A stretch of DNA of 64,000 nucleotides from Pseudomonadota bacterium (GTDB lineage Bacteria; Pseudomonadota; Gammaproteobacteria; Burkholderiales; Burkholderiaceae_C), in the NCBI GenBank assembly GCA_019351955.1, contig JABBOE010000001.1, positions 8,234 through 72,233 of the forward strand, given 5' to 3'. Shown one piece after another: positions 1 to 22,398 of the stretch. A program made the translations under genes and the position numbers. The first letter of the stretch is position 1. Every line of letters starts with the position of its first letter. Below the pieces are notes generated by a model. That model worked only from the letters and a program-made list of their open reading frames with translations, was not told the DNA's origin and ran no database searches.

Positions 1-119
1 GTCAGCTAAGCGCCTATCGCCATGAAGGCTTCTGGCAGCCCATGGATACGCTTCGCGACAAGACCCATCTCGAAACCTTGTGGCAAGCCGGCAAGGCTCC
101 GTGGAAGGCATGGGCATGA
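1..119 (+). CDS. rfbF: glucose-1-phosphate cytidylyltransferase, C-terminal fragment (5' end lies outside the window)
   Basis: Frame 3 reads ...[35 protein letters not shown], which is the conserved RfbF/DdhA C-terminus. The TGA at 117-119 overlaps the ATG of the next gene (ATGA). Confidence 0.8.
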
Positions 120-1180
120 AGGCTGATTTCTGGTCCGGCAGGCGGGTGTTTGTGACCGGGCACACTGGCTTCAAGGGCAGTTGGCTGAGCCTGTGGCTTC
201 AGGGTCTAGGGGCGAAGGTCACCGGTTTCGCGCTGGAGCCTCCCACCACGCCCAGCCTATTCGTCGAGGCGCGCGTGGCCGATGGCATGTGCTCCATCAT
301 CGGCGACATCCGCGAGCCTGCCGTGCTGGCGACATCTCTGCGAGATGCGCAGCCCGAGATCGTTTTCCACTTGGCAGCGCAGTCTTTGGTGCGTTACTCC
401 TACGACGCCCCCGTGGAAACGTACATGACCAATGTGATGGGTACCGCGCACCTGCTCGACGCCGTCCGCAGAACGCCGTCGGTTCGTGCCTTGGTCAACG
501 TGACGAGCGACAAGTGCTACGACAATCGCGAGTGGGTGTGGGGCTACCGTGAGAATGAGGCCATGGGAGGGTTCGACCCCTACAGCAGCAGCAAGGGCTG
601 CGCCGAACTGGTAACCCAGGCATTCCGGAATTCATACTTTCCGCCGAACGACTTCGATCGACACCGTGTCGCCTTGGCTAGCGCCCGAGCGGGCAACGTC
701 ATAGGTGGAGGGGACTGGGCCGCCGATCGGTTGATACCCGACATTGTCCGCTCCATCGTGGCGGGCCAGACGGTGGACATCCGGAATCCCGGTGCGATTC
801 GCCCGTGGCAGCATGTGCTGGAACCGCTGAGCGGATACCTCACGCTGGCCTGGCATCTGTTCGAACAAGGCCCCGTGTATTCCGAAGCCTGGAATTTCGG
901 CCCTGAAGACCGCGACGCAAGGCCCGTGCAATGGATCGTCGAAAAGATGCTCGCCCTTTGGGGGCAAGGAGGCTGGTCGCACGATACGCAACCCCAACCC
1001 CACGAGGCGACGTATCTGAAGTTGGACTGCTCCAAGGCGGCGGCGAGGTTGGGATGGGTGCCCAGATGGGGCTTGGAGCGCGCATTACGCGAGATTGTCG
1101 CTTGGCACCGTGCGCATGCCGCCGGTGCCGACATGCGTTCAGAGACAATGAAGCAAATTGAAGCCTATATCGCCGTCTGA
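116..1180 (+). CDS. rfbG: CDP-glucose 4,6-dehydratase
   Basis: ORF 80..1180 trimmed to the ATG at 116 (ATGA overlap with rfbF); ATG 110 is also possible. Rossmann motif [14 protein letters not shown] and catalytic [10 protein letters not shown]. Length about 355 aa, typical of RfbG/DdhB. Confidence 0.9.
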
Positions 1181-1201
1181 AAAGAAAATCAGGAAAGAAC
1201 A

Positions 1202-2515
1202 ATGGATTTGAATCAACTTCGTCAAGACATCCTTCGACTCGTCGACCAGTTCGGCGAACTGGCGTCGCAGCCCAAGCGGTTCGAAGCAGACAAGACGCCT
1301 GTGCCGCCCTCCGGCAAGGTCGTGGGCGCACCCGAAATGCGCCTGATGGTCGAGGCCTCGCTCGATGGCTGGCTGACCACCGGACGCTTCAACGATCAGT
1401 TCGAAGCGGCACTGGCCCGGTTTCTCGGTGTTGGCCATGTGTCCACCACAAATTCAGGTTCGTCTGCGAACCTACTGGCCTTCTCTGCGCTGACCTCGCC
1501 CAAGCTGGGCGCGCGCGCCATCGTTCCGGGAGACGAGGTTATCGGTGTCGCAGCGGGTTTCCCGACCACAGTCAACCCCATCCTTCAGTTCGGCGCCGTG
1601 CCCGTTTTCGTCGATGTCGACATCCCGACCTACAACGTCGACCCTACCAAGCTCGAAGCCGCAATCTCGCCCAAGACCAAGGCCATCATGCTGGCGCATA
1701 CCCTGGGCAATCCGTACAACCTAGACGTCGTCACCGACATCGCGCGTAGGAATGGCCTGTGGCTGATCGAGGATTGCTGCGACGCTCTCGGCTCGACCTA
1801 CGACGGACGGCTCGCCGGAACGTTTGGCGATATCGGGACGCTGAGCTTCTATCCTGCCCACCACATCACGATGGGAGAAGGCGGCGCCGTGTTCACCAAT
1901 AACCCGGAGCTGAAGTCCATCATCGAATCTTTCCGCGATTGGGGGCGGGACTGTTACTGTGCCCCCGGAAAAGACAATACCTGCGGCAAGCGCTTCTGTT
2001 GGAAGCTGGGCGATCTTCCCTACGGCTACGACCATAAATACACCTATTCGCATCTGGGCTACAACCTCAAGATCACCGACATGCAGGCTGCCTGCGCCTT
2101 GGCGCAGATGGATCGCCTGCCCGGTTTCATCGATGCGCGCCGCAAGAACTTTGCTTTTCTCCATGGGAGACTGCAAACCTGCGCAGATCAGTTAATTCTT
2201 CCTGAGGCCACGCCCAAGTCCTCTCCGTCGTGGTTTGGCTTCCCGATTACCTTGCGCGACTCGGTGGATTTCAGCCGCGTCGATCTACTAACCTATCTGG
2301 ACCAGCACCGCGTTGGCACGCGTTTGCTGTTCGCAGGCAACCTGACGCGCCAGCCATACATGGTCGGACGGAACTTCCGTGTTTCGGGGGATCTGCGCAA
2401 CACCGACATCATCATGAACCGAACCTTCTGGATTGGCGTCTATCCGGGGCTGACGGAAGAGATGCTCGAACACGCAGTGTCGACCATTGAGACGTTCCTA
2501 GGCGTGAATTTCTGA
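1202..2515 (+). CDS. rfbH: CDP-4-keto-6-deoxy-D-glucose 3-dehydrase (E1, PMP-dependent, DegT/DnrJ/EryC1 fold)
   Basis: 437 aa. [14 protein letters not shown] carries His where aminotransferases carry the PLP lysine. A Cys cluster ([17 protein letters not shown]) fits the E1 [2Fe-2S] site. Position directly after rfbF-rfbG. Confidence 0.9.
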
Positions 2516-2530
2516 CATTTTCAGCGCCCA

Positions 2531-3553
2531 ATGGACAAGCCATACGGCGTCGGCCATGTTCTGGCGCATACCACCGAAATCTGGGATGAGTTCAGGCAGG
2601 CGCGACTGTTCGTTACGGGCGGAACCGGTTTCATTGGCAAGTGGTTGCTGGAGTCGTTTCTAGCAGCGAACGATGCTTTCGACCTGCGAGCGAGGGTCTG
2701 TGTGCTCAGTCGCGACCCAGCCCGCTTCGGTGCGGAAATGCCAAGCATCTCCACGCATGCGGCCATCGAATTTGTCGTTGGCGATGTGCGCTCCTTCGAC
2801 TTCCCTCGCGGGCCATTTACCCACATCGTTCATGGTGCGACCGACATCGCCAATCCAGCCTTGCCGCTCGACACTTTCGACGTGACGGTCCGTGGCACTC
2901 GGCGTGTGCTCGACTTTGCCCAGGTGTGCGGGGTGACAAACCTGTTGCTCATCAGTTCTGGCGCAGTCTACGGAAGACAGCCACCGGACATTGACCAAGT
3001 TGCCGAAGACTATGTCGGAGCGCCTAGCGTGCTGTCCACAGCGTCCGCTTATGGCCAGGGCAAGCGCGTATCGGAGTGGCTGAGCATCGTTTATGGCCAG
3101 TCAGGCATGCAGGTACGAATCGCGCGCTGCTTCGCCCTTGTCGGCCCGTATCTCCCGTTGGACAAGCACTTCGCCATCGGCAATTTCATGCGAGACGCCC
3201 TAGCCCGTCAAGACATTGCCATATGCGGCGACGGCACGCCGTTGCGGTCCTATCTCCATGCCGCAGACCTGGCCGCATGGTTGTGGACCATCATGGCCCG
3301 AGGAGCGCCGTCGAGCGTGTTCAACGTTGGCTCTGACCAAGCGATCTCCATCGCGGGGATTGCCGAACTTGTAGCCCGACTTGCCGGATCGGGAAGTCGG
3401 ATCAACATTGCAAAAGCGTTCCAGCCTGGCGCGACACCGGAGCGCTATGTTCCGTCCATCGACAAGGCTAGACGGGAGTTGGGCCTGAATGTATGGATCC
3501 CCCTCGAAGCAGCCATTCTCGATACCATTTTTGCGTACCGGAGCAAGCTGTGA
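2531..3553 (+). CDS. NAD(P)-dependent sugar epimerase/reductase (extended SDR), probable CDP-ketosugar reductase
   Basis: 340 aa. Glycine-rich motif VTGGTGFIGKWL and a YGQGK (YxxxK) catalytic motif. Sits between rfbH and the transketolase pair. Exact substrate cannot be deduced from sequence. Confidence 0.7.
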   Translation: MDKPYGVGHVLAHTTEIWDEFRQARLFVTGGTGFIGKWLLESFLAANDAFDLRARVCVLSRDPARFGAEMPSISTHAAIEFVVGDVRSFDFPRGPFTHIVHGATDIANPALPLDTFDVTVRGTRRVLDFAQVCGVTNLLLISSGAVYGRQPPDIDQVAEDYVGAPSVLSTASAYGQGKRVSEWLSIVYGQSGMQVRIARCFALVGPYLPLDKHFAIGNFMRDALARQDIAICGDGTPLRSYLHAADLAAWLWTIMARGAPSSVFNVGSDQAISIAGIAELVARLAGSGSRINIAKAFQPGATPERYVPSIDKARRELGLNVWIPLEAAILDTIFAYRSKL

Positions 3554-3594
3554 CAATTTCGAAACCCATCGCAGTCACGGGTAGCGGAGGTGAT

Positions 3595-4401
3595 ATGGAA
3601 AGATTTGATCCAACGCGGATTCGCAGAGCCATTCTGGACATGGCTTACTCAGGCGGAACAGTGCACATCGGCTGCGCGTTCTCCATCGTGGAGCTACTTG
3701 CCGTCCTATATCGCAATCACTTGCGATTGGCCGGCCCTGATCAGGCTACCGAGGGGCGCGACTATATGGTCTTAAGCAAAGGGCATGGCGTCATGACGCT
3801 GTACGCCTGCCTCAACGAGATCGGCATGTTGTCGGATGAGGACATCAAACAATACTTCAGGGATGGCACCCGCCTCAAGGGGCTTGCCGACGTCCACGTC
3901 GCGGGAGTGGAGGCAACGACCGGATCCCTTGGGCATGGCCTTTCCGTCGGGGCAGGGCTCGCGCTTGCAGCGAAACGGAAGAAAACCGACCAAATCTCTT
4001 ATGTCTTGGTCGGCGACGGTGAACTCAACGAGGGCGCAATTTGGGAAGCGGTACTGTTTGCAGCCCATTTCAAACTCGATAACCTGATCGTCATCGTCGA
4101 CAAGAATGGTTTTCAAGCAATGGGATCCACGCACGAAGTGATCGAACTAGGGAGTATCGAACAGAAATTCTCGGCTTTCGGCTTTGACGCCCTGACAGTG
4201 GATGGCCACGACGAAGCCGCCGTGGACGCTGCATATCAATCGTTGAAGACAAATAAAAACGGACGCCCGAAGGTCATAGTTGCGAATACCGTGAAGGGAA
4301 AGGGCGTCTCATTCATGGAGCACGACAACACATGGCATTACACCAGATTGACGCCTGAGACCTATCGGGCCGCAATTGCAGAATTGGAGGTCATTGTATG
4401 A
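3595..4401 (+). CDS. transketolase, N-terminal (ThDP/PP-binding) subunit
   Basis: ORF 3493..4401 trimmed to ATG 3595, preceded by GGAGG. Motifs SKGHG and the ThDP motif GDGELNEGAIWEA. About 268 aa, typical of split transketolase subunit A. Confidence 0.85.
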   Translation: MERFDPTRIRRAILDMAYSGGTVHIGCAFSIVELLAVLYRNHLRLAGPDQATEGRDYMVLSKGHGVMTLYACLNEIGMLSDEDIKQYFRDGTRLKGLADVHVAGVEATTGSLGHGLSVGAGLALAAKRKKTDQISYVLVGDGELNEGAIWEAVLFAAHFKLDNLIVIVDKNGFQAMGSTHEVIELGSIEQKFSAFGFDALTVDGHDEAAVDAAYQSLKTNKNGRPKVIVANTVKGKGVSFMEHDNTWHYTRLTPETYRAAIAELEVIV

Positions 4402-5330
4402 GAAGCGCCTTTTCCGATGCAATAACGGCCGAAGCGAAGCGCGATCCAAGAGTGCTTCTCTTGACGGGGGATCACGGCTATGCGTTATTTGATTCATTCC
4501 GAAAGAGGTGTCCTGAGCAGTATATTAATTGTGGCATCGCTGAACAGAATATGGTTGGTGTTGCAGCAGGGCTGGCAAGAGCGGGTTTTCGCCCGATCGT
4601 TTACGGCCTGGCAGCATTCGTTCCGGTTCGTGTGCTTGAGCAAATCAAAATCGATGTGTGCTACGAACGGCTCCCGGTGATCTTCATCGGGGACGGCGCA
4701 GGCCTCGTCTACAGCCACCTCGGCACCAGCCATCAGTCCACCGAAGACATTGCCTGTACCCGATCCATTCCGGATCTGACCGTTCTTTCCCCGGCGGACC
4801 GCTTTGAAATGGCAGCCGCCCTTGCTCAGGCCTTCGATGCTGCGTCGCCGGTGTATTTGCGCATGGGAAAATCCGACCGCGGCGATGTGCATCGGGGGCC
4901 GGTGGACTTCTCAGCGGGACAAATGATCTTTGTAAAGGGGGGACGCAGCGAAGTCGTCATGCTGGCAACCGGGTCTATGGTGAAAACCGCGCTCGAACTG
5001 ACGGTCCGTGGGGTTGATGCGCAAGTGTGGAGCGTGCCATCAATCAAGCCGCTCGATAGCGCGAGTCTCGGCGAGATCTGCCGCCACGCAAAAGTATTGA
5101 TCACGTTGGAAGAGCATTCCGTCTTTGGGGGCTTGGGTTCTTGTATTGCCGAGGAGGTCGCAAAAATAAATCCAGTTCCGATATGCCGCATCGGTATCGA
5201 AGACCGCTTTTCGGCGCTCTGTGGCAGTTATGATTATTTGCTCAAAGAACATGGGATTGACCTTGCGTCCGTTAAGCAACGAGTTGATGGATTTTTGCAA
5301 GTTCAGTTGGCAGCTTCGCTTCGAATTTAA
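4398..5330 (+). CDS. transketolase, C-terminal (pyrimidine-binding) subunit
   Basis: 310 aa. NCGIAEQNMVGVAAGLA motif. ATGA start/stop overlap with the N-terminal subunit and GGAGG at 4386-4390. Confidence 0.85.
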   Translation: MRSAFSDAITAEAKRDPRVLLLTGDHGYALFDSFRKRCPEQYINCGIAEQNMVGVAAGLARAGFRPIVYGLAAFVPVRVLEQIKIDVCYERLPVIFIGDGAGLVYSHLGTSHQSTEDIACTRSIPDLTVLSPADRFEMAAALAQAFDAASPVYLRMGKSDRGDVHRGPVDFSAGQMIFVKGGRSEVVMLATGSMVKTALELTVRGVDAQVWSVPSIKPLDSASLGEICRHAKVLITLEEHSVFGGLGSCIAEEVAKINPVPICRIGIEDRFSALCGSYDYLLKEHGIDLASVKQRVDGFLQVQLAASLRI

Positions 5331-5406
5331 TGAAACCCCTTCGTATGCATTCCACCACCCTCAAAAAATTGCATGAGACAGGCATTAAAGCTGGAAATTG
5401 GGGAAT

Positions 5407-5793
5407 ATGCACGCGCTGACAGTTTTGAGAAAGAAGCGCTTCGTTCGATTCCTCCTTGTAGGGGCGCTTAATACCTTTTTTGGCTATGCCTGCTTCGCAG
5501 CATTTTTGTACGCGGGCTTGCATTACATCCTGGCTTTGCTTGCCGCTACCGTCATCGGCGTGGCTTTCAACTTCAAGACCATTGGAGCCTTGGTTTTCGA
5601 TTCGCGGGCCAATCATCTGATCTTTCGATTTGTGGCCTGTTACGGCGTGGTCTATGCAGTCAATGCTTTGTTGCTGACGGCTTTTCAAGCGGGTGGTCTC
5701 CACTCCCCTCTCGTCGGCCAAGCAGTCCTTGTGCTCCCGATGGCAATTTTTTCCTACACACTCAACCGACGTTACGTGTTCCTACATGGCTAA
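5407..5793 (+). CDS. GtrA-family small membrane protein (putative polyprenyl-phosphate-sugar flippase)
   Basis: About 128 aa with four predicted hydrophobic helices. N-terminus KRFVRFLLVGALNTFFGYACF is typical of the GtrA family. Overlaps the next gene by 8 nt. Confidence 0.75.
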   Translation: MHALTVLRKKRFVRFLLVGALNTFFGYACFAAFLYAGLHYILALLAATVIGVAFNFKTIGALVFDSRANHLIFRFVACYGVVYAVNALLLTAFQAGGLHSPLVGQAVLVLPMAIFSYTLNRRYVFLHG

Positions 5794-6760
5794 GCTCATC
5801 AGTATCGTCACTCCCTGCTACAACGAAGAAGACAACGTTGACGAGCTCTGCGAGCGCATCGCCAAGGTGATGCGCTCGCAGCCTTATGAGTACGAGCACA
5901 TTCTGATTGACAACCACTCGACAGACGGTACGGTGGCGCGCGTCAAGGCAATCGCCGCCAATGACCCGCGCGTCAAGCTCATCGTCAATGCACGCAATTT
6001 CGGCCACATTCGCTCGCCCTACTACGGAATCCTCCAGTCCAGCGGCGATGCTTGCGTCCTGATTGCATCGGACTTGCAGGATCCGCCAGAGATCATTGCG
6101 GAATTCATCCAGCGCTGGGAGGAGGGGTACAAGACGGTGCTCGCCGTCAAGCCGGAAAGCGAAGAATCGCCCGTCGTGTTCATGCTGCGCAAGCTATATT
6201 ACCGCTTCGTCACGGCCATCTCCGAAGTTCCCTTGGTGAAGAACGCCACCGGCGCCGGGATGTTCGACCGCGAGGTTGTCCAGATCCTCAGGAAAATCCA
6301 GGACCCGTATCCGTATTTTCGCGGACTGGTTTGTGAAATCGGTTTTCCAATTGCCACCGTGCCGTTCAAGCAGCCGCGAAGAAAGCGCGGGATCACGAAG
6401 AACAATTTCTACACGCTTTACGACAATGCCATCCTCGGCATAACCAATCACTCAAAGCTTCCCCTCAGGCTGATGACCATCGGCGGGTTTGCTTTGTCAA
6501 TTCTCAGCTTCGTCACTGCAATGTGCTTCCTGCTTGCGAAATTGCTGTTCTGGAATTCATTCCAGCTCGGCATTGCGCCAATCCTGATCGGGATGTTCTT
6601 CTTCTTCGCAATTCAGATGTTTTTCCTCGGTCTGCTTGGCGAATATATCGGAGCGATCTATACACACGTCAGGCGCGTACCTCTAGTAGTAGAAATGGAG
6701 AGGGTGAATTTTGACCTAACGTCCGCTGATGCCGCGATCGAGGCAAAAAATGAGCAGTGA
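5786..6760 (+). CDS. family-2 glycosyltransferase, polyprenyl-phosphate sugar synthase type (GtrB/ArnC/DPM1-like)
   Basis: ORF 5693..6760 trimmed to ATG 5786. ISIVTPCYNEEDNV GT-A start and a DxD-like ASDLQD. Two C-terminal TM helices (LRLMTIGGFALSILSF..., ILIGMFFFFAIQMFFLGLLGEYIG) as in GtrB/ArnC. Confidence 0.8.
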   Translation: MAKLISIVTPCYNEEDNVDELCERIAKVMRSQPYEYEHILIDNHSTDGTVARVKAIAANDPRVKLIVNARNFGHIRSPYYGILQSSGDACVLIASDLQDPPEIIAEFIQRWEEGYKTVLAVKPESEESPVVFMLRKLYYRFVTAISEVPLVKNATGAGMFDREVVQILRKIQDPYPYFRGLVCEIGFPIATVPFKQPRRKRGITKNNFYTLYDNAILGITNHSKLPLRLMTIGGFALSILSFVTAMCFLLAKLLFWNSFQLGIAPILIGMFFFFAIQMFFLGLLGEYIGAIYTHVRRVPLVVEMERVNFDLTSADAAIEAKNEQ

Positions 6761-8813
6761 AGTTTTATCGAAAAGCGCCAAAAGAATCTGCTTGGCATTT
6801 TTGGCGCTCACGCTATATTCTGCGATCACCTATCTTGCTTTTGTGCCGCATGGCATCTCCTGGACGCATGACATATTTTCGCCGAACGGGGATGCGTACA
6901 TCGGAATTTGGTCAATGAATTGGTGGCCATTTTCCATAAAGAATGGAATAAATTCATTTTTGACGAAATATATTTGGTATCCAAGTGGATTTAACCTTGC
7001 TTGGGCTGGCGTCATGCCAACATTGGCATTTATTGGTTATCCACTTACTAATTGGCTGGGGCCCATAGCGTCATACAATATATTGGCGTTATCCGTCTAT
7101 CCTTTAGGGGCATTCGGCGTTTACTTGCTTTCCAAATATTTGACAGATAACTATCCCGCGGCGCTCTTCTCGGGTTTTTTATTCGGATTTTCATCATACA
7201 TTGTCGGCCAATCGCTGGGGCATATTGTATTGTCATTTGTTTGCCTGATTCCCCTTGCCGTTCTTGTGGCAGTCAAGCGGTTTAGGGGTGAAATAGGAAG
7301 GACGATATTTATCGTCGTCGTGGCCTTATTCGTGGCACTTGAGTTTGGTATATATATAGAAGTTGTGGCCACCGCCACATTTTTTTCCAGCTCTTATTTG
7401 TTATTATATTATTATTTCAATGAAAAATTGCGGCAACGCCTCAGAGCGTTGATGTTCGAGCTTGGAGCCGGGTTCGTCCTTGCTATTGTTATATTGAGCC
7501 CTTATCTATTTTATATTATCGATGGCTTGAGTTTTGTTCCGAATGTCATAAACTCTCCATTTTCGTTTTCCGCTGATTTATTAAATTACATTATACCGAC
7601 GCCACTTGCGTGGGTCGGTGGGGTTATTTTTACTCCAATATCGTCACGATTTACTGGTAACTTCAGTGAGACTGGTGCATATCTGGGTGTAATTTTCGTC
7701 GGTGTGATGGTATTGTCGCTTCGTGCGAATTTGAAAATGTCGTGGGGGATGCCATTATTATATTGGCTGATATTTGTCGCCATATGTAGCCTTGGTCCAT
7801 ATTTGCAAATTGGTGGTGTCAATACAAAAATTCCATTGCCGTGGGCGCTATTCGAGAGAACGCCATTGCTCGGACATGCGCTGCCAACCCGATTTACGCT
7901 TTATATTGATCTCGGGGCATCTGTATTAGCCGCGTTTTGGTTGAGCGAACGCGCCCTGGGTCGCTGGGAAAAGATATTAAGATATTTGATCGTGCTTTGT
8001 GCGTTGGTTATGATATTTCCCGCCACGCGGCCGTGGCCTTTTGGTGAGAATGGGATTCCTTGGGCGGCCGCCGGTACGCCGCAATTATTTCTTGATCAAG
8101 CAATCCTGAAAAAATACATTAAAGCAAACGATGTTGTTGTCATATTGCCATACGGAAGTCAGGGAGGGTCGATGCTCTGGCAGGTCCAGTCCGGCATGTA
8201 CTTCAGGATGGCGGGCGGGTATGTCGGTTTTACACCGAAGCAATTTGGTGGGTTGCCAGCGGTGAATATTTTTTACAATAGTAATATACCGTCGGATGCT
8301 GAAACGGTGAAGAATGCGGTGGCGAGTTTCTGTGCTACTCATGACGTCAAGGCGATCATTCTTGCGCCGGGAACTAGCCCGGCGCTTTCGGCTGCTATGC
8401 AGAAGTTGGATTGGAAATCGGAGCAAGCGGGTGGGGTCGAACTGATTCGGGTGCCACCAACTGCTGAATTGAAATATAGCGATATACGTGGCGATTACTG
8501 GCAAAGCGTGGCAGACTGGGCTTGGATGGGGAAAACTATCGCGATTTCCAACCATGGCATCGGGTCGACGTTTTACGTGAAGGCTGAAGGGTTGCCGCCG
8601 GCTGTCGGACCAATCAGCTTGACGGTTCGGCGAGACGGCAAAGTTGAGTACGTGCTTTTAACCCCCGGGAAAGGCGGCGTTTTTTCTTTCAAGGTCGGGC
8701 CGTTTGCCGCCGCAACGATAACTGCCGACAGGACGTGGAGACCAAATAAGGTCATTTATAACGGCGACGAGCGACAATTATCAGTATTATTTAAAGTTGA
8801 GGATTCGCATTGA
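6750..8813 (+). CDS. large polytopic membrane protein, putative GT-C-type periplasmic glycosyltransferase (ArnT/YfhO/GtrC-like role)
   Basis: ORF 6729..8813 trimmed to ATG 6750, which overlaps the GT2 stop. The first ~440 aa are hydrophobic multi-TM, followed by a ~250-aa soluble C-terminal domain. Strongly AT-rich codon usage. Function is inferred from context with the GtrA/GtrB-like genes; I recognised no diagnostic family motif. Confidence 0.5.
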   Translation: MSSEVLSKSAKRICLAFLALTLYSAITYLAFVPHGISWTHDIFSPNGDAYIGIWSMNWWPFSIKNGINSFLTKYIWYPSGFNLAWAGVMPTLAFIGYPLTNWLGPIASYNILALSVYPLGAFGVYLLSKYLTDNYPAALFSGFLFGFSSYIVGQSLGHIVLSFVCLIPLAVLVAVKRFRGEIGRTIFIVVVALFVALEFGIYIEVVATATFFSSSYLLLYYYFNEKLRQRLRALMFELGAGFVLAIVILSPYLFYIIDGLSFVPNVINSPFSFSADLLNYIIPTPLAWVGGVIFTPISSRFTGNFSETGAYLGVIFVGVMVLSLRANLKMSWGMPLLYWLIFVAICSLGPYLQIGGVNTKIPLPWALFERTPLLGHALPTRFTLYIDLGASVLAAFWLSERALGRWEKILRYLIVLCALVMIFPATRPWPFGENGIPWAAAGTPQLFLDQAILKKYIKANDVVVILPYGSQGGSMLWQVQSGMYFRMAGGYVGFTPKQFGGLPAVNIFYNSNIPSDAETVKNAVASFCATHDVKAIILAPGTSPALSAAMQKLDWKSEQAGGVELIRVPPTAELKYSDIRGDYWQSVADWAWMGKTIAISNHGIGSTFYVKAEGLPPAVGPISLTVRRDGKVEYVLLTPGKGGVFSFKVGPFAAATITADRTWRPNKVIYNGDERQLSVLFKVEDSH

Positions 8814-8868: not shown

Positions 8869-9906
8869 ATGGATAGGTCTGCAATCATTACTGGTATCAC
8901 CGGCCAAGACGGAGCCTATCTTTCTGGGCTATTGCTAGAGAAGGGATACACCGTCTACGGCACCTATCGCCGCAGCAGTTCGGTGAACTTCTGGCGCCTT
9001 GAGGAACTGGGCGTTGCCCAGCATCCAAAATTGCGTCTGGTCGAGTTCGACCTGACCGACCTAGGTTCAGCCATCCGCCTGCTGCAGACCAGCGGCGCGA
9101 CTGAGGTGTACAACCTAGCCGCCCAAAGTTTTGTCGGTGTGTCGTTCGACCAACCGCAGACGACGGCGCAGATCACCGGGATTGGCGCTTTGAACCTGCT
9201 GGAGGCCCTTCGCATCGTCAACTCGAAGATCCGCTTCTACCAGGCCAGTACCTCGGAGATGTTCGGCAAGGTGCAGGCGGTGCCGCAGGTGGAAGACACG
9301 CCGTTCTATCCGCGCAGCCCGTACGGGGTCGCCAAGCTGTATGCGCATTGGATGACGGTGAACTACCGCGAAAGCTACGGCATCTTCGGCAGCAGCGGCA
9401 TTCTGTTCAACCACGAAAGTCCGTTGCGCGGGCGCGAGTTCGTCACCCGCAAGATCACCGACAGCCTGGCCAAGATCAGACTGGGCAAGCTGGATGTGCT
9501 GGAGTTGGGCAATATGGACGCCAAGCGTGACTGGGGCTATGCGAAGGACTACGTGGAGGGTATGTGGCGCATCCTGCAAGCCGACGAGCCTGACACCTTT
9601 GTGCTGGCCACCAACCGTGCGGAAACCGTGCGCGACTTTGTTTCCATGGCGGCCAAGGCTGCGGGCTTCAACCTCGAATGGCAAGGCAAGGCCGAGCAGG
9701 AGCGGGGGATCGACGCCGCAACCGGCAAGGCCATTGTGATCATCAACCCCAAGTTCTACCGTCCCGCAGAGGTGGAGTTGCTGATCGGCAATCCGGCCAA
9801 GGTCAAGGCCAAGCTGGCTTGGGCGCCCACCACGACGCTGGAGCAGCTTTGCGCCATGATGGTCGAGGCGGATTTGCGCCGTAACGAAGCGGGGTTCTCG
9901 TTCTGA
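8869..9906 (+). CDS. gmd: GDP-mannose 4,6-dehydratase
   Basis: 345 aa. N-terminus [23 protein letters not shown] and high overall similarity to Gmd proteins. Confidence 0.95.
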
Positions 9907-10808
9907 TGCAGGCGCCAACTGCATTGGTGACCGGCGCTGGCGGATTTACCGGCCGCTATCTCGTGCCGGCGCTGCGCGACAAGGAATTTCGCGTGGTCGG
10001 CCTGGGGGAGGGGGCATCCTCCGCTGATGTCGACATCTCCTGCAATCTGACGAACACTGCGGCCGTACGCTCCGCCGTGGAGCAAGCGCAGCCGACGCAT
10101 GTGGTGCATCTGGCCGCGCTCGCCTTCGTGGGACATGGAGATGCGCGGGCGTTTTATGACGTCAACCTCTTCGGTACGCTCAACCTGCTGGAAGCGCTGG
10201 CGGCACTGGACGTGCCGCCGCAAAAGGTGCTCATCGCGAGTTCGGCCAATGTGTACGGTACCCCGGGAGTCGAGGTGATTGACGAAACGGTTTGCCCGGC
10301 ACCGGTGAACCACTATGCCTGCAGCAAACTGGCCATGGAGCACATGGTGCGCACCTGGTTTGAGCGGTTGCCAATCGTGATGACGCGACCGTTCAATTAC
10401 ACCGGGGTGGGGCAGGACGAGAAGTTTCTCATCCCCAAGATCGTGAGTCATTTCCAGCGCAACGCCGCGCACATCGAACTGGGGAATCTCGACGTTGCAC
10501 GAGATTTTTCCGACGTGCGGGACGTGGCGGCGGCTTATATGGCCCTGCTCGATTCGGATGCGCATTCCGACGTGTTCAACGTCTGCACTGGCGAAGCCGT
10601 TGCCTTGCGAGAAGTGCTACGCATGATGGCCGAGATCAGCGCCCACGACTTGGAGGTGCGCGTGAACCCGGCGTTCGTGCGCTCGAATGAAATTCCCGTC
10701 TTACGGGGCGACCCGCGTAAGCTCCAGGGACAAACCGGGCATACCTCCAGCATTCCGCTGCGCGACACGCTGCACTGGATGTACACGGCCGCGTCGCCAG
10801 CAGCGTAG
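9906..10808 (+). CDS. rmd: GDP-4-dehydro-6-deoxy-D-mannose reductase (GDP-D-rhamnose synthase)
   Basis: 300 aa. Blocks shared with Pseudomonas Rmd as I recall it: NLFGTLNLLEAL, YACSKLA, RPFNYTGVGQ, LGNLDVARDFSDVRDV, VFNVCTG. TGATG overlap with gmd. Confidence 0.8.
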   Translation: MQAPTALVTGAGGFTGRYLVPALRDKEFRVVGLGEGASSADVDISCNLTNTAAVRSAVEQAQPTHVVHLAALAFVGHGDARAFYDVNLFGTLNLLEALAALDVPPQKVLIASSANVYGTPGVEVIDETVCPAPVNHYACSKLAMEHMVRTWFERLPIVMTRPFNYTGVGQDEKFLIPKIVSHFQRNAAHIELGNLDVARDFSDVRDVAAAYMALLDSDAHSDVFNVCTGEAVALREVLRMMAEISAHDLEVRVNPAFVRSNEIPVLRGDPRKLQGQTGHTSSIPLRDTLHWMYTAASPAA

Positions 10809-10837: not shown

Positions 10838-13216
10838 ATGCACTTACCACGAGCGGAACAAGCAACACCGGTTTTTTTCACCATCGTGTCGGCCAATTAC
10901 ATGGCCTATGCGAAGACCCTCATGGCGTCGATCCGCGAGAACCATCCGGATTCGCTGCGCTATGTGTTCCTGGCCGACGAAACCCTCAGCGAATTGAACA
11001 TCGAGGCAGGCTTGTTCAAGCTTCGCTTAGGCAAAGATTTGCCGGTGCCCCATTTTGAGCACCTGGCGTTTCGCTACAACATTCTGGAATTCAACACCGC
11101 GCTCAAGCCGTTCGCCATCAGCCAGTTGATGCTCGAAAACCCGGCGGCACCAGTGCTCTACATCGACCCCGATATTCTTCTTCTCTCCCCGTTGACGGAG
11201 GTTTTCAGCCGCCTGTCGGCTGGAGCGATGGCGGTGCTTACGCCCCACTTCACCGCGCCGCTGGAAGATGGGAAATCGCCGGACGAGCTCGCCATCTCGC
11301 GCGTGGGAAGCTTCAACCTGGGGTTTCTCGCAACGGGCCCACAGCCATCACGCCAGGCTTTCGTTGACTGGTGGTGCCGCAAGCTGGAGTTCGGCGCCTT
11401 CGTTGATCTGGAGTCGGGCTTGTTCACCGACCAGAAGTGGATGGATCTAGTGCCGGGCATGTTCCCGGGCGTGCAGATCCTGCGGCACCCCGGTTACAAC
11501 CTGGCGTACTGGAACCTACCGCACCGCCCGGTGGCCCTGGCAAACGATGGCGCGCTGCTGGCGGGTGGCGAACCGGTGGCCTTCATCCATTTCTCGGGGG
11601 TGGACGTACACCACCCGGAAATGTTCTCGAAACATCAGAACCGCTTTGACATCACGAACATTGGCTCGCTGCGGCCCACCTACGAGCGCTACGTGGCACT
11701 GCTACAGACCAACGGCTATGACGATTACCTCAAGATCGGCTACCGGTATGGCAAGCTGCGCGACGGCACGCGCATCACGCAGGACATGCGCGAGATCTTC
11801 CGACAAAAGTTTGACATCGGCTGCGCGGATCCCACCCAGGATCCGTTTGGTCTGCCTGGCACGGCTTTCGTGGAACCTCTCCCCGTGTCCATACGCGTCA
11901 TGCGCTTGGCGCGGCAGCAGCTCACGCGGATACGCAACTTCTGGCCAGTGCGTGTTCTGTTCAACCGACTCAGCCCGGAAGCGCGGTGGGCGCTGCGCCG
12001 CTTTGTCATGCGTGGAGTGCAGTCGCCCGAAGCACGTGCACTTCGGCAACAGAAAGCACAACGAGCGCTGGGCTTTGAAACTCAACGGGAAGAAGGCGGC
12101 CAGGGCACGGCGGCCAACTTCATTGGCTACCTCACCGGAGAATTCGGTGTTGCAGAGAACGCCAGGCTGTTCATTGCCGCAGCGCAGCGAGCAGGTGTGA
12201 AGCTGGCTCTAACTAGCATCGACGCGACCAATACTGCCCGGCAGAGTGACGCGAGGTATGAGCACGCCGTCACCAACAAGGCCACGTTTCCGATCAGTGT
12301 GATTTTCGCCAATGCGGATCAAGCGCCGCTCGTGCAGGCTGCGCTGGGGCCGGACTATCGCACTTCTTACACGGTGGGATATTGGTATTGGGAGCTTGGC
12401 CTGTTTCCGGAAGAATGGGTAGGCAGCTTTGACTACGTGGACGAGGTCTGGACAGCCACAGAATTCGTGCGCGACGCGGTGCAGGCACGCACGCATAAGC
12501 CCGTGTACAAACTGCGACCTCCGGTCGATGTTCGCCTCGACCGGGCCTACCGGCGCTTGGAGTTCGGCATCCCGGACGATCGTTATGTCTTTCTCTTCAG
12601 CTTTGATTTCCAGTCCTTCATCGAACGCAAGAATCCTTTCGGCGCGATTGACGCATTCAAACTGGCGTTTCCGGAGCCAGATGACCGCGCCATTCTTGTC
12701 CTGAAGGCCACGAACGGCGACAAGAAGCCGGATGAGCGCAAACGTTTGCTGGACTCGATTGGCACGGATACTCGCATCGTGCTTCAAGACCAGTTTCTGA
12801 GCCGCGAGGCCATGTTCGGTCTTGAAAGCGTGGTTGATTGCTATGTCTCGCTGCATCGCGCCGAGGGATTTGGTTTGGGCCTAGCCGAATCGATGGCACT
12901 GGGCAAGCCTGTGATCGGCACAGCCTACTCTGGAAATATGGAGTTCATGAACGCCGCGAACAGCTGTCTGGTGGGCTACCGGCTTATTGACATCGAGAGG
13001 AACCAGTACCCCTTCGGCTTGGGCAAACAATGGGCCGACCCCGACTTGGCGCAGGCAGCATTCCACATGCGCCGCTTGGTGGACAACCCCGCCTACGCCC
13101 AAGCCATGGGCCAAGCCGGCGCGGCACATATGCGCGACGAATTCGGTCTTGAGCCCTGCGGCAATGCGGTAGCAAACCGGCTTGCGACGCTCACACAGCG
13201 CGGCACGCCGCGCTAA
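10838..13216 (+). CDS. two-domain glycosyltransferase (N-terminal GT-A-like domain plus C-terminal GT4/GT-B domain), probable D-rhamnosyltransferase
   Basis: 792 aa. The N-terminus FFTIVSANYMAYAKTLMASI is typical of nucleotide-sugar transferase domains. The C-terminus SLHRAEGFGLGLAESMALGKPVIGTAYSGNMEF is a GT4 signature. Placed directly after gmd-rmd. Confidence 0.7.
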   Translation: MHLPRAEQATPVFFTIVSANYMAYAKTLMASIRENHPDSLRYVFLADETLSELNIEAGLFKLRLGKDLPVPHFEHLAFRYNILEFNTALKPFAISQLMLENPAAPVLYIDPDILLLSPLTEVFSRLSAGAMAVLTPHFTAPLEDGKSPDELAISRVGSFNLGFLATGPQPSRQAFVDWWCRKLEFGAFVDLESGLFTDQKWMDLVPGMFPGVQILRHPGYNLAYWNLPHRPVALANDGALLAGGEPVAFIHFSGVDVHHPEMFSKHQNRFDITNIGSLRPTYERYVALLQTNGYDDYLKIGYRYGKLRDGTRITQDMREIFRQKFDIGCADPTQDPFGLPGTAFVEPLPVSIRVMRLARQQLTRIRNFWPVRVLFNRLSPEARWALRRFVMRGVQSPEARALRQQKAQRALGFETQREEGGQGTAANFIGYLTGEFGVAENARLFIAAAQRAGVKLALTSIDATNTARQSDARYEHAVTNKATFPISVIFANADQAPLVQAALGPDYRTSYTVGYWYWELGLFPEEWVGSFDYVDEVWTATEFVRDAVQARTHKPVYKLRPPVDVRLDRAYRRLEFGIPDDRYVFLFSFDFQSFIERKNPFGAIDAFKLAFPEPDDRAILVLKATNGDKKPDERKRLLDSIGTDTRIVLQDQFLSREAMFGLESVVDCYVSLHRAEGFGLGLAESMALGKPVIGTAYSGNMEFMNAANSCLVGYRLIDIERNQYPFGLGKQWADPDLAQAAFHMRRLVDNPAYAQAMGQAGAAHMRDEFGLEPCGNAVANRLATLTQRGTPR

Positions 13217-13235
13217 CGGGCATCGGCCATCTCCT

Positions 13236-14378
13236 GTGCGAGTTCTGCACTTCGGCAAATACGCGTTCGAGCGCGCTGGCGGCATGGAGCGCCATGTCGA
13301 GGTTCTCACCCGTGGCTTGGCAGCCGCCGGCGTTGATGTGTCGGTTCTGGTTTATGACCCCTCGGGGCTCGCCCGATCACGCGCCGTCGATGGCGTCCTT
13401 GTCGAGCCGGTGAGGCCTTGGTTCCATCTGGGAAGCCAAGCCATTGCGCCAGGCATGCTGGGCAGAGCCTACGCCCAAGCACGAAAGAAGCGCTTCGACT
13501 TGGTGCACCAGCACTGGCCTGACCCCTTTGGCCATGTCGTCGCTAGCCTCGTGCCGGGGCACCCAGCACACGTCGTGAGTTGGCATAGTGACATCGTGCG
13601 CCAGCGCGTGATAGGGCCGCTATACCTCGGACTGGCGCCCCATTTGCTGCGGCGCCCAGACGCGGTGGTGGGCGCGACTGCCGCGCATCTTCAATCTCGG
13701 CAGCTTGACGGTTTCGTCACGAGGGAACTCCGCCACGTCATTCCCTATGGCATCGACGTGCGCCCTCTGGAGCCTACGGCTGAGGTCTTGCGGCAAGCAG
13801 AGGCTCTACGCGCAAAGTACAAACACCAGCCTCTCGTGTTCGCATTAGGCCGGCATGTTTACTACAAAGGCTTCGATGTACTTATCAAAGCGATGGCCCA
13901 AGTACAGGCCGTGCTAATCTTGGGCGGCGAGGGGCCGCTAACAACCCAATTGCGCGGTTTGGCTTTGAGCAACGGCGCACGCGTGGAGTTTGCTGGCGCC
14001 ATTCCCGAAGAAGAACTGCCTGCCTACTTCCACGCTTGCGACGTGTACTGCCTCTCATATATCGCACAGGCTGAAGCCTTCGGCATCGTTCAGGCGGAGG
14101 CCATGGCTTGCGGCAAACCGGTGGTCAACACCTGGCTTCACAACGGCGTAAATGAGCTTGCAGCAAACAATGTATCCGCACTTACCGTAGACCCTGGTGA
14201 TCCCAACGCCTTGGCGAACGCTTTGAACCGCGTGTTGTGCAACTCAGAGCTAGCACGGCGCTTAGGTCGAGGTGGGTACCTACGTGTGCGGCAGGACTTT
14301 ACTGTAGAGGCCATGGTGCGGAAGACTATTGACCTCTACGCGGCGTTGCTGCAGTGGCGCGCCAAGCAACGCGTTTGA
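13236..14378 (+). CDS. GT4-family glycosyltransferase (WbpY/WbpZ-like)
   Basis: ORF 13182..14378. A GTG at 13236 gives N-terminus VRVLHFGKYAFERAGGMERHV, typical of GT4, without overlapping the upstream gene. C-terminal QAEAFGIVQAEAMACGKPVV motif. Confidence 0.75.
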   Translation: MRVLHFGKYAFERAGGMERHVEVLTRGLAAAGVDVSVLVYDPSGLARSRAVDGVLVEPVRPWFHLGSQAIAPGMLGRAYAQARKKRFDLVHQHWPDPFGHVVASLVPGHPAHVVSWHSDIVRQRVIGPLYLGLAPHLLRRPDAVVGATAAHLQSRQLDGFVTRELRHVIPYGIDVRPLEPTAEVLRQAEALRAKYKHQPLVFALGRHVYYKGFDVLIKAMAQVQAVLILGGEGPLTTQLRGLALSNGARVEFAGAIPEEELPAYFHACDVYCLSYIAQAEAFGIVQAEAMACGKPVVNTWLHNGVNELAANNVSALTVDPGDPNALANALNRVLCNSELARRLGRGGYLRVRQDFTVEAMVRKTIDLYAALLQWRAKQRV

Positions 14379-14653
14379 TTGGCCCGAAGGTATACAACAA
14401 CGCCCCGCAAAGCTGCCGCCTACCAAAACGGCACTGGTCCCTCCCCAACGTCCAAAATGTCGCTGCCGCCACCGAAGGTCATCACCACCAAGACCATCAC
14501 CGGCAGGTGACCTCTGAGCGTCTATCCAACAAGGCCCAAATAATCACTTCGCAGCTTGGCTCACCCAGCGCTGGTCTCGACCTTTAGCCGCCACCTGCAT
14601 CCGGTCGCCCATCCGCCCCAAATTAATATATCCGGATTGCACTAGGCAATATA

Positions 14654-16117
14654 TCAATAGCCTGAATGAAGAGAACGCACGCCTTCATGAAGGTGCATCA
14701 CAGGAGGTATTTCTGATCGCCCCTCGAAAGCCACCTCTTCGCCACTTCCAATTCGCGCAAAGACAGCATCAATGCGCCGCCGAGCGGCGATATCAATTGC
14801 CTCCTCAAACATCGAACGGGAATAATTCCAAAGCTCCTTTCGCATGGCGCCACCCAAAGGTGACTCAAACTCTCTTATACACAAGCGATGAACCCACACC
14901 CCATCCTCAAAATCGACTCGGTCATGCCCCTGCCCGGCAGTGAGAACATGCACCTGATGCCCGTCCGTTGCTGCGCTAGCAGCAAACTGATAGGCGTCCG
15001 CTCCGGCGCTGTCAGCGCCCTTCTGGTCGTACTCGCGGCATAAAACCACAAAGCATCGCTGGCAGCTCGCATCAAGCAATGGCTTAAACGTCAATATATC
15101 ACCCATCCCTCTCAGTTGTTCGGCCCTCCAGATCCTTCGCACTCCCGCCAGACCGCGGTTGAGACCATCGCGAAGCGCCCGATTTACATCCGATTCGAAT
15201 CGTTTCATGTATACAGGGTCAAGCCCTTTGACCTCAACGGCCCAGCGCGCGTCATGCCTGTATCTCTCAATCGCTGCACCTATGTCTAGCAAGATCTGGT
15301 AAAGGCCTGCATGCTCACCCGCATTGAGAATCGAGAAGTAAACCTTATTTTTGACCAGTGAATACCAATTAGTTAAAACACCGCCATCATCTCTTATATC
15401 ACTTGCCAAATATTTGTGATGAACAAAGCCAACACTCACTTGTGCCACCTTGAACCCAGCATCTACAAGACGTAATATGAGATCACTTTCATCCAAAAAA
15501 TATTCATATTCCTCATCAAACCCACCAAGCTCGGCGATTGCTGATCGCCGAAAAACGCTATTTGCCATTACATGCGGATAATTGAAACTACCAGGGAAAT
15601 TAAATTCCGGCGTCGCGCGACCCCAAGATTGATCTGGCGTACCAAAGCGGTTGAGGGTCCCATACATCCATTGATAACCCTTCCCGGTGTGATCATGTAA
15701 AAAGCCGCCTGCGACAGCAACATCGCCGTCTATAAACATCGGGATCAAATCGCTCAGCCACTCCGGCTCGGGAACCGAATCATCGTCTAGAAATGCGATA
15801 AACTCACCCGCTGAATTCGCAATGCCAATATTTCTCGAAAGAGACAAATTTCTTATCGGGCATTGCGCATATCGAATAACAGACCCATAAGAGTCGCAGA
15901 GTTCGTGTGTGCCATCCCGCGTGGGCCCCGCGACAACCACGACCTCAAAGTTTGGATACCGAAGGTAACGCAGACTTTCAAGGCAAGTTGTCAAACTTTT
16001 AACCCGTGCATCGGTATTTATAACAACCGAAACAGGGGGATAGAACTCGCGATGAATCATTATTTTCAAAAAATCCTCAGAGATAACTCCATCATCGTGA
16101 AATAGCCCACTTCGCAT
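14654..16117 (-). CDS. GT2-family glycosyltransferase with a C-terminal extension resembling half of a GT-B domain
   Basis: 487 aa. GT-A start VSVVINTDARVKSL...NFEVVVVAGP and FLDDDSVPEPEWL (DxD). The last ~130 aa (DGHQVHVLTAGQGHDRVDFEDGVWVHRL) look like the N-terminal Rossmann half of a GT4, without the catalytic half. AT-rich. Confidence 0.7.
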   Translation of the reverse strand: MRSGLFHDDGVISEDFLKIMIHREFYPPVSVVINTDARVKSLTTCLESLRYLRYPNFEVVVVAGPTRDGTHELCDSYGSVIRYAQCPIRNLSLSRNIGIANSAGEFIAFLDDDSVPEPEWLSDLIPMFIDGDVAVAGGFLHDHTGKGYQWMYGTLNRFGTPDQSWGRATPEFNFPGSFNYPHVMANSVFRRSAIAELGGFDEEYEYFLDESDLILRLVDAGFKVAQVSVGFVHHKYLASDIRDDGGVLTNWYSLVKNKVYFSILNAGEHAGLYQILLDIGAAIERYRHDARWAVEVKGLDPVYMKRFESDVNRALRDGLNRGLAGVRRIWRAEQLRGMGDILTFKPLLDASCQRCFVVLCREYDQKGADSAGADAYQFAASAATDGHQVHVLTAGQGHDRVDFEDGVWVHRLCIREFESPLGGAMRKELWNYSRSMFEEAIDIAARRRIDAVFARIGSGEEVAFEGRSEIPPVMHLHEGVRSLHSGY

Positions 16118-16200
16118 TGCGGAAGTGACATTCAGCCTTCTCGATTGGCGTGCGCCGAGTTAGCTTGCGCCAAGGGTTCTGCGGCTGGAAAGTCCGCCGA

Positions 16201-22225: not shown

Positions 22226-22287
22226 GCGAAAGAGTCCTTGCAGGCTGCTATGGGATGCATACCCGCTTGAGCGGGTATGGCGTGCTG

Positions 22288-22398
22288 AGAGCCCAGGCGA
22301 ACGGCAGCAAACACTGCGCTTCCCGGTGGTTGCTCCACCTCGACGGGCTGCAGGCGGAACCTTCCGCCGTGCCGTCTTATCGCCAGTCGCGCAGACGG
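22288..22398 (-). promoter_or_regulatory. ZTP (pfl-motif) riboswitch in the glyA leader
   Basis: The minus-strand RNA reads ...CUGCGCGACUGGCGAU...GGUGGAGCAACCACCGGGAAGCGCAG...GCUGCCGUUCGCCUGGGCUC. This contains the conserved GACUGGCG, CCACCGGG-A-GC and CGCCUGGGC blocks. CUGCGC/GCGCAG forms P1 and GGUGG/CCACC forms P2. It lies about 60 nt upstream of the glyA ATG. Confidence 0.7.

Follow-up and report, generated by a model that had tools for sequence, protein, structure and literature searches.

How can a bacterium finish a CDP-linked 3,6-dideoxyhexose from a locus that holds none of the usual finishing enzymes? This question is raised by a stretch of 64,000 nucleotides (positions 8,234 to 72,233 of contig JABBOE010000001.1, assembly GCA_019351955.1) from a bacterium of the Burkholderiaceae_C, hereafter referred to as the window. 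Its first genes are rfbF, rfbG and rfbH, and these are followed by a short-chain dehydrogenase/reductase (SDR) and by a transketolase split into two subunits, TK-N and TK-C. No synthase or epimerase of the paratose, abequose or tyvelose type was found anywhere in the 64-kb window. On balance, we favour the view that the module would make a 3,6-dideoxyhexose bearing a two-carbon branch at C-4, in the form of a CDP-sugar, and would install it on a surface polysaccharide via a lipid carrier. The split transketolase and the SDR would then act upon CDP-4-keto-3,6-dideoxyglucose, as an earlier sequence-only reading of the same DNA had suggested. Gene order, the active site and the lack of a YerE-like gene support this part of the suggestion, while the glycolyl branch that it allowed for is now less favoured, given a leucine in place of His100.

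A CDP-sugar operon with a split transketolase

The genes concerned are the following:

3..119 (+): 3' end of rfbF, glucose-1-phosphate cytidylyltransferase (translation of frame 3; TIGR02623)
116..1180 (+): rfbG, CDP-glucose 4,6-dehydratase (TIGR02622, 497 bits against a cut-off of 278)
1202..2515 (+): rfbH/ddhC, E1 CDP-6-deoxy-4-hexulose 3-dehydrase of the pyridoxamine phosphate and [2Fe-2S] type (NF011936)
2531..3553 (+): extended SDR, which would reduce the branch carbonyl with NAD(P)H in a YerF-like role (PF01370, Epimerase, E 1.7e-33)
3595..4401 (+): TK-N subunit, PP domain with the thiamine diphosphate (ThDP)/Mg site GDGELNEG...N (PF00456, Transketolase_N, E 8e-39)
4398..5330 (+): TK-C subunit, Pyr and C-terminal domains (PF02779, Transket_pyr; PF02780, Transketolase_C)

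Strong homology points to the core pathway for RfbF, RfbG and RfbH. The rfbF gene is cut by the window edge, so that only its C-terminal 37 residues were scored; in the profile search they matched positions 219-255 of the 255 in TIGR02623 (E 7.8e-18), and full-length rfbF is present in relatives. Its stop codon TGA (117-119) overlaps the rfbG ATG at 116, with alternative rfbG starts at 110 and 80. RfbH scores 739 bits against NF011936, where the cut-off is 423. It carries the motif C251-x-C253-x7-C261 plus C193, and has His220 in 'FYPAHH' where aminotransferases have lysine; these positions are presumably those of the Yersinia E1 enzyme, with which we equate them by residue number. By its motifs, RfbH reads as a genuine E1 dehydrase.

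The profile matches place the three core genes where the sequence-only reading had put them, and the Pfam matches do the same for the SDR and the split transketolase within one co-directional, packed operon. The two transketolase genes overlap by the ATGA at 4398-4401; this coupling and the intact ThDP motif GDGELNEG, both described before, are seen in the sequence. A GGAGG ribosome-binding site stands 6 nucleotides before the TK-N ATG, and another GGAGG lies upstream of the TK-C start. In a consensus scan, the intergenic gaps were free of promoter-like and terminator-like sites. The few sites that it reported all lie within genes, with counts near the shuffled expectation, and an operon split by an internal promoter or terminator was rejected on these grounds.

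Recurrence of the cassette in other bacteria

The TK-N subunit belongs to a large family, with at least 7,991 relatives at E ≤ 1e-20 in a collection clustered at 90%. The best matches are 72-90% identical, and the cassette is carried by cultured strains such as Burkholderia ambifaria MC40-6, whose TK-N is ACB64767.1, and Paraburkholderia phenoliruptrix BR3459a. The window proteins were mapped onto a comparative set of 46 loci, one genome per species, drawn from beta-, alpha- and gamma-proteobacteria and from Cyanobium/Synechococcus; in 38 of them, 4.5 kb or more of sequence precedes TK-N. Within that subset, rfbF, rfbG and rfbH are co-directional and directly upstream of TK-N/TK-C in 37 loci. 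Such a recurrent linkage means that the arrangement is not due to chance, and it bears out the earlier remark that transketolase subunits recur in rfb clusters. In 34 of 45 loci, TK-N has a homologue of the SDR no more than 3.5 kb away.

Two gene orders occur, namely F-G-H-SDR-TKN-TKC, as in the window, and E3-F-G-H-TKN-TKC-SDR, in which E3 is the reductase DdhD/AscD, built of a plant-type 2Fe-2S part and an FNR-like module. Therefore, selection keeps the gene set and not one inherited layout. The same nine-gene module, rfbF-rfbG-rfbH-SDR-TK-N-TK-C-GtrA-GT2-large membrane protein, is present in Burkholderia ubonensis and Paraburkholderia sp. GAS448, where rfbF is the first gene and adjoins divergent or unrelated genes. 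Neither the window nor any of the 46 loci gave an open reading frame (ORF) of the acetohydroxyacid synthase (AHAS)/YerE type when searched by tblastn with E. coli IlvI as proxy (E ≤ 1e-3), and the transketolase pair is the sole ThDP enzyme found in these loci.

Based on a motif screen and tblastn, the E3 gene is immediately upstream of rfbF in 22 of the 46 loci. These include nearly all loci of the second order, plus those of Sphingosinicella (L012) and Cellvibrio (L037). The position of E3 beside rfbF in these loci ties the cassette to the 3,6-dideoxy-4-keto intermediate.

Active site of the split transketolase

The closest solved structures are those of the split transketolase of Carboxydothermus hydrogenoformans (ChTK), with 6YAK chain A matching TK-N (E 1.4e-54) and 6YAJ matching TK-C (E 7e-51). 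We aligned 45 members of the transketolase family with MAFFT, together with E. coli TktA, E. coli Dxs and ChTK, and give residues in E. coli TktA numbering. The comparison with TktA, which the sequence-only reading had proposed, returned cofactor and catalytic residues that are kept and substrate residues that are replaced. Unchanged in all 45 members are His26, His66, the GDG...N Mg site, Arg358, Glu411 and His473, and the motifs GDGELNEG...DKNG and IAEQ are conserved just as widely. The equivalent of His261 is kept as 'TWH' (WH) at the TK-N end, as read by eye in a column that MAFFT gapped.

Five positions are substituted in every member: His100→Leu, His461→Gly, Asp469→Leu, Phe434→Leu and Arg520→Lys. 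Around the first of these, 'GHP[ED]' becomes 'GL[AS]D'; additionally, the Glu468 position is mostly His, and the Ser385 stretch reads TGDHGYAL. In transketolases, contacts to the substrate phosphate come from His461, Arg520, Ser385 and Arg358; the 2-OH of the acceptor is bound by Asp469, and His100 (yeast His103) hydrogen-bonds the C1-OH of the ketol donor. Judged from the alignment, the rfb-linked family has kept catalysis and altered both substrate sites. As the canonical substrate residues are invariantly lost, the family would not be a pentose-phosphate transketolase. The loss of Asp469 fits the proposed acceptor, because the carbonyl of CDP-4-keto-3,6-dideoxyglucose has a CH2 neighbour.

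A wider comparison suggests in which direction the change at His100 went. Among the 150 best 50%-cluster representatives, 123 have His at this position, and Leu is found in every one of the top-scoring clusters; by this distribution, Leu is the derived state. The family is a tight one: in an exhaustive search of representatives, its best 50% clusters scored 415, 278 and 250 bits, above generic split transketolases, which plateau at about 229 bits and below. TK-C scores 144 bits against Dxs and 161 bits against transketolase.

Two assignments were rejected. Ordinary transketolase (EC 2.2.1.1) was set aside with the phosphate- and 2-OH-binding residues and His100 replaced, and membership in the pyruvate dehydrogenase (PDH) E1 family with Transketolase_N at 8e-39 against E1_dh at 1.4e-14.

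A further 13 of the 50% clusters hold split TK-N proteins with Thr, Gln, Tyr, Phe, Ser or Glu in place of His100 (P0290, P0326, P0334, P0338, P0340, P0344, P0351, P0357, P0394, P0403, P0408, P0413 and P0415). There may be further neofunctionalised transketolases among them.

The SDR reductase

The SDR contains the motifs GGTGFIG and YGQGK. Its constant company with the transketolase genes suggests that it is the ketoreductase of the branch. Its best solved relative, a UDP-glucuronate decarboxylase (UXS; E 1e-29), only places it among the extended nucleotide-sugar SDRs. The Rossmann motif is followed by 'LSRD' in the SDR and by 'VVDN' in UXS, a difference that hints weakly at the use of NADP(H).

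The reductase is not the same in every locus. In L036 (11727-12674), L041 (11740-12675) and L045 (11700-12662), another Rossmann reductase of about 315 amino acids ('ILGATSQIAKDL...') replaces the SDR 3' of TK-C. The Ramlibacter locus, L047, has no reductase nearby, and GtrA is inserted between rfbH and TK-N. In loci of these types, the reduction step may be served by a non-homologous enzyme or omitted.

Proposed pathway, donor and product

The pathway would begin with RfbF, making CDP-glucose, and RfbG, converting it to CDP-4-keto-6-deoxyglucose. RfbH (E1), with an E3-type electron donor, would remove the 3-OH to give CDP-4-keto-3,6-dideoxy-D-glucose; these steps follow from strong homology. 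The TK-N/TK-C heterotetramer would then add a ThDP-bound two-carbon carbanion to the C-4 ketone, yielding a tertiary alcohol. The carbanion would most likely be hydroxyethyl-ThDP, formed by decarboxylation of pyruvate, and the product CDP-4-C-acetyl-3,6-dideoxyhexose. Reduction of the side-chain carbonyl by the SDR would turn the branch into 1-hydroxyethyl and so yield a sugar of the yersiniose type, yersiniose being 3,6-dideoxy-4-C-(1-hydroxyethyl)-D-xylo-hexose. TK-N/TK-C and the SDR would thus be a non-homologous replacement of YerE/YerF. From homology and fold, a GT2 glycosyltransferase is predicted to transfer the sugar onto undecaprenyl phosphate, a GtrA-like protein would aid the lipid-linked sugar in crossing the membrane, and a GT-C enzyme would attach it in the periplasm, probably to an O-polysaccharide that contains D-rhamnose and is made by gmd/rmd and the GT4 genes.

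We give the acetyl, yersiniose-type product a chance that comes close to even but stays below it. In a Geobacillus transketolase, H102L (with H474S/G and L118I) promotes the use of pyruvate. The invariant His100→Leu matches this engineered, pyruvate-aiding change, and therefore a non-hydroxylated donor is favoured, with acetyl/1-hydroxyethyl over glycolyl, although the match is suggestive only. Passages in PMC4753412 and PMC4153317 name yersiniose as a constituent of the lipopolysaccharide (LPS) of Yersinia, Budvicia, Pseudomonas mandelii and Burkholderia brasiliensis, and both refer to Mattos 2005 for yersiniose A from the O-polysaccharide of the latter. Since yersiniose is a known LPS sugar, a product of this type is favoured a priori. 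The B. brasiliensis polymer is said to be a D-rhamnan with yersiniose A side branches, and such a polymer would match the gmd/rmd genes and the Gtr-like side-branch system described below.

Several observations weigh against this pathway, and they concern the deoxygenation, the donor, the acceptor, the reductase and the delivery. No E3 gene was found in the 64-kb window by the motif screen or by tblastn with the E3 proteins of Cellvibrio and Sphingosinicella, nor was one found within ±10 kb in the nearest relatives with the gene order of the window (Burkholderia, Paraburkholderia, Polaromonas and Pandoraea). In those relatives, 3-deoxygenation therefore needs an unlinked or unknown reductase. 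The sequence-only reading had noted both the missing E3 and the missing synthase/epimerase set, which holds for the whole window. It had also presumed E3 to lie upstream; this agrees with the 22 loci in which E3 does precede rfbF, and disagrees with its absence within 10 kb in the closest relatives, so that a location upstream of position 1 is possible, but uncertain and not favoured by these relatives. His473, which the engineered pyruvate-using variants also have altered, is kept throughout the transketolase family. Pyruvate is the natural donor of E. coli Dxs, which has the same fold, and this enzyme apparently has a His at the His100 equivalent ('GGLHPFP'), as judged by spacing to the VGH anchor, MAFFT being unreliable around His100 and blastp aligning only from 'GH' onward. 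As Dxs seems to keep this His, Leu is not required for pyruvate chemistry in the fold, and we have downgraded the pyruvate inference. Additionally, transketolases normally take aldehyde acceptors and not ketones, and the nearest solved relative of the SDR is a decarboxylase, not a ketoreductase. To our knowledge, GtrB/ArnC-type enzymes are known with UDP-sugar donors; the use of a CDP-sugar here is an assumption. Paraburkholderia kururiensis/'B. brasiliensis', sought as the yersiniose producer, was not among the best 120 named homologues and 10 clusters, which is not evidence of absence.

The NCBI tag HIU89_00070 of the GT-C gene suggests that about 5 genes lie upstream of rfbF on this contig of a metagenome-assembled genome.

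Alternative donors, acceptors and roles

If the donor were hydroxylated, such as a ketose phosphate or hydroxypyruvate, the transketolase pair would create a 4-C-glycolyl branch, which the SDR would reduce to 1,2-dihydroxyethyl. We consider this unlikely. It has in its favour the fold and the catalytic histidines His26, His66, His261 and His473, all as in true transketolases, a closest solved relative that uses hydroxypyruvate (PMC7661550), and the split transketolases of miharamycin and amipurimycin, which are thought to move hydroxyacetyl (PMC12247030). The residue that binds the donor C1-OH, however, is Leu in all 45 members, while most of the 150 related clusters keep the His. We know of no 4-C-glycolyl or dihydroxyethyl 3,6-dideoxyhexose, from LPS or otherwise, despite the abundance of the family.

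Less probable still, and in our view quite doubtful, is a branched sugar other than yersiniose, formed with an acyl unit of another kind or of greater length (from 2-oxobutyrate or, as in erwiniose or caryophyllose, from a longer 2-oxoacid that carries a hydroxyl group) or on another acceptor, for example CDP-4-keto-6-deoxyglucose in lineages that lack E3. The smaller or more hydrophobic pocket residues (Phe434→Leu, His461→Gly and His100→Leu) would suit such units, relatives of YerE such as ErwE use longer donors (PMC9306805), and E3 is unlinked in the closest relatives. On the other hand, the cassette lacks the aldolase or dehydrogenase genes that would supply a 2-oxoacid, unlike the erwiniose cluster (PMC9306805), and RfbH, with all hallmarks of E1, is always present.

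It is very improbable that the pair is an ordinary pentose-phosphate transketolase or precursor supplier, with the SDR alone finishing a plain paratose/abequose-type 3,6-dideoxyhexose: Pfam and NCBIfam do label both subunits transketolase and the SDR could in principle be a 4-ketoreductase, but His461→Gly, Asp469→Leu, Arg520→Lys and His100→Leu are invariant, the linkage to rfbF-G-H is near-obligate across phyla, and the scores against the equivalog NF004559 (TK-N 246 bits, TK-C 161 bits) fall below its cut-off of 488, though low scores are expected for split halves that each cover half of the model.

In the fullest form of the favoured pathway, which is tentative and has somewhat less than an even chance, the split transketolases would be the first of their family to form a tertiary alcohol at the ketone of a nucleotide sugar in primary surface glycan synthesis. 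They would be natural users of a pyruvate-type (alkyl) donor, with His100→Leu matching the engineered H102L, convergent with YerE, and would serve a yersiniose-type or undescribed branched 3,6-dideoxyhexose. In some lineages they would be coupled to a Gtr-like system, the first in which undecaprenyl phosphate would bear a CDP-derived sugar.

Putative delivery genes downstream and the polysaccharide region

Beyond TK-C, the same strand continues with putative delivery genes, which are followed by genes of the polysaccharide region:

5398..5793 (+): GtrA-like small membrane protein with four hydrophobic segments (PF04138, E 6e-16; hydropathy)
5786..6760 (+): GT2 polyprenyl-phosphate glycosyltransferase, GtrB/ArnC/PgfS-like (PF00535)
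6750..8813 (+): GT-C fold membrane glycosyltransferase of 687 amino acids, DUF6311-related, proposed periplasmic transferase (AF2 model, Foldseek)
8869-9906 (+): gmd (PF16363, E 1e-132)
9906-10808 (+): rmd-like reductase (PF16363, E 2e-47)
10838-13216 and 13182-14378 (+): two GT4-type glycosyltransferases in a polymer-assembly context (PF00534, PF13439)
19647-20705: epimerase-type SDR in the polysaccharide region

The tightly packed operon, and with it the functional unit, reaches past 5330, and 1-8813 of the window probably represents one module; this implies delivery by a lipid carrier as a side-branch decoration. The gene caller starts GtrA at 5407 (gene call in contig L003). The GT2 protein has two C-terminal hydrophobic segments by hydropathy, and its scores against NF047588 PgfS (167 bits) and NF007986 ArnC (109 bits) are both below the cut-offs, which makes it a relative of these enzymes and not an equivalog. 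The GT-C gene has an alternative ATG at 6729. Its product has no Pfam match; homologues often carry PF19830 (DUF6311), and a few are named 'glycosyltransferase family protein'. An AlphaFold (AF2) model from a 45-sequence alignment reached pLDDT 91.3 and pTM 0.88. Foldseek gave 19 matches with E ≤ 1e-3, at modest TM-scores of 0.38-0.51, and every one is a GT-C enzyme that uses polyprenyl-phosphate-linked sugars (AftD, AglB, STT3, DPY19, ArnT, PglB and AftA). An invariant Asp48 stands between the first two helices. The tail of GtrA, GT2 and a large membrane protein is also found 3' of the cassette in Burkholderia ubonensis and Paraburkholderia, where the membrane protein is DUF7024-related.

The gmd/rmd pair is probably the GDP-D-rhamnose route to the backbone sugar, and it also occurs in Burkholderia ubonensis (L001) and in the loci L018 and L046. 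Beyond the GT4 genes there are two minus-strand GT2 genes and then the further SDR, and the LPS region closes ahead of glyA, at about 21 kb.

Eight loci of the comparative set (L005, L006, L008, L009, L011, L013, L014 and L030) have Gmd-like and RfbH-like genes about 1-3 kb upstream of rfbF, the former with 51-54% identity to the Gmd of the window and the latter 32-36%. The RfbH-like gene may be a ColD-type 3-dehydratase, which suggests a second, GDP-based 3-deoxygenation pathway beside the CDP-based one.

Base composition varies along the window. The GC content is 0.47 over the GT-C gene (6001-8000), 0.48-0.52 over the minus-strand GT2 genes (14001-18000), 0.58-0.61 in the rfb and transketolase genes and 0.63-0.70 in the remaining window. 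The polysaccharide region seems to be a mosaic, in which the acceptor-specific transferases would be the most recently acquired. Between the GT2 genes and the SDR at 19647-20705 lies an ORF of 264 amino acids (18720-19514, +) with no Pfam match at E ≤ 1e-5 and just a sub-threshold 14-bit match at E ≤ 0.05.

Other features of the window

Downstream of the LPS region, 25217-29257 (+) encodes a 1346-amino-acid AsmA/DUF748 protein, which we would place in the AsmA-like outer-membrane lipid-transport family. A TnpB-type IS605-family element (32725-34011, +; HTH_OrfB_IS605, OrfB_IS605 and Cas12f1-like TNB domains) lies in a housekeeping region. Two riboswitches are present, a TPP riboswitch (49668-49783, -; 62 bits) upstream of thiC (47761-49635, -) and a ZMP/ZTP riboswitch (22284-22400, -; 54 bits) upstream of glyA (20969-22225, -). 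A ThiD-ThiE fusion is encoded at 43638-45233 (-).

Wider meaning

If the proposal is true, the split transketolases would represent a third enzyme family for C-branching of sugars, and a natural template for transketolases that take ketones and non-hydroxylated donors, which is of use for chiral tertiary alcohols in biocatalysis. Thousands of 'transketolase' annotations in LPS loci would be corrected. The module would also provide a branched dideoxyhexose side-chain epitope in plant-associated Burkholderiaceae and freshwater cyanobacteria, with a bearing on phage and host recognition. The family is large and conserved, and its substrate is well defined and can be made enzymatically; therefore, the question is directly testable.

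Comparison with known systems

According to a 2025 review, the branched sugars of LPS are made by YerE-like enzymes of the decarboxylase family (PMC12247030). The sequence-only reading had held that such chemistry was not shown for transketolase-type subunits in LPS loci, and the literature searched agrees, documenting only the YerE type there (PMC12247030). Our search returned no paper that links a transketolase to rfbF/G/H or to yersiniose; papers on Pseudomonas protegens mention rfbG/rfbH and OBC clusters, and no transketolase. The ThDP-dependent C-branching of CDP-4-keto-3,6-dideoxyglucose is known, from YerE-type enzymes only, whereas the family of catalyst proposed here, its Gram-negative and cyanobacterial breadth and its coupling to a Gtr-type system would be undescribed.

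The nearest parallel is the yersiniose pathway of Yersinia pseudotuberculosis O:6, with homologues in Pseudomonas simiae WCS417. It uses the same DdhA/B/C (RfbF/G/H) route to CDP-4-keto-3,6-dideoxy-D-glucose, and likewise a ThDP enzyme that adds two carbons at C-4, before the branch becomes the substrate of an NAD(P)H reductase (PMC9306805, PMC12247030, PMC4509608). YerE, however, is a single-chain flavoprotein of the decarboxylase/AHAS family, whereas the ThDP enzyme of the window has two subunits and the transketolase fold. Delivery differs as well, with a Gtr-like lipid-carrier system in the window against a cytoplasmic O-unit transferase in the yersiniose system.

Among transketolases, ChTK shares the α2β2 architecture (implied for the window pair), the ThDP/Mg motif and the cofactor-activating Glu, and is a functional transketolase with hydroxypyruvate and aldehydes (PMC7661550). 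It retains His100, His461, Asp469 and Arg520, where the rfb-linked family has Leu, Gly, Leu and Lys. Dxs shares the transketolase-like fold and the pyruvate donor, and its 'IDRAG' resembles the 'GDGAG' of the window family; it differs in being a single chain, in keeping Asp427 and apparently the His100-equivalent His, and in its acceptor, glyceraldehyde-3-phosphate.

Secondary metabolism offers two further parallels. As a passage in PMC4753412 describes them, the AviB1/AviB2 and Pau11/Pau12 pairs of avilamycin and paulomycin are two-subunit ThDP enzymes that are proposed to place a C-4 acetyl from pyruvate on an NDP-4-ketosugar, which is then ketoreduced to hydroxyethyl. These pairs belong to the 2-oxoacid dehydrogenase E1 family and to Gram-positive antibiotic clusters, whereas the window pair matches best as Transketolase_N and occurs in Gram-negative and cyanobacterial polysaccharide loci. 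The transketolases of miharamycin, amipurimycin and 13 further Streptomyces biosynthetic gene clusters are likewise encoded by split genes, with a proposed ketone (keto-sugar) acceptor; such acceptors are just proposed, none of these enzymes having been characterised in vitro (PMC12247030). They are proposed to transfer hydroxyacetyl, and the known examples all stem from Streptomyces secondary metabolism, while the window family is linked to the CDP-3,6-dideoxyhexose core, occurs widely in proteobacteria and picocyanobacteria, and has Leu for the donor-OH-binding His. A split transketolase adjoining aminotransferases is also recorded in the wps-2 cluster of Actinoplanes.

For delivery, the models are the Gtr (GtrA/GtrB/GtrC) and Arn (ArnC/ArnT) systems, with the same trio of a GtrA-family protein, a GT2 enzyme with C-terminal membrane helices and a GT-C enzyme. 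What sets the present system apart is a presumed donor that is the CDP-sugar of the same operon, and a GT-C enzyme related to DUF6311 in the window and to DUF7024 in Burkholderia.

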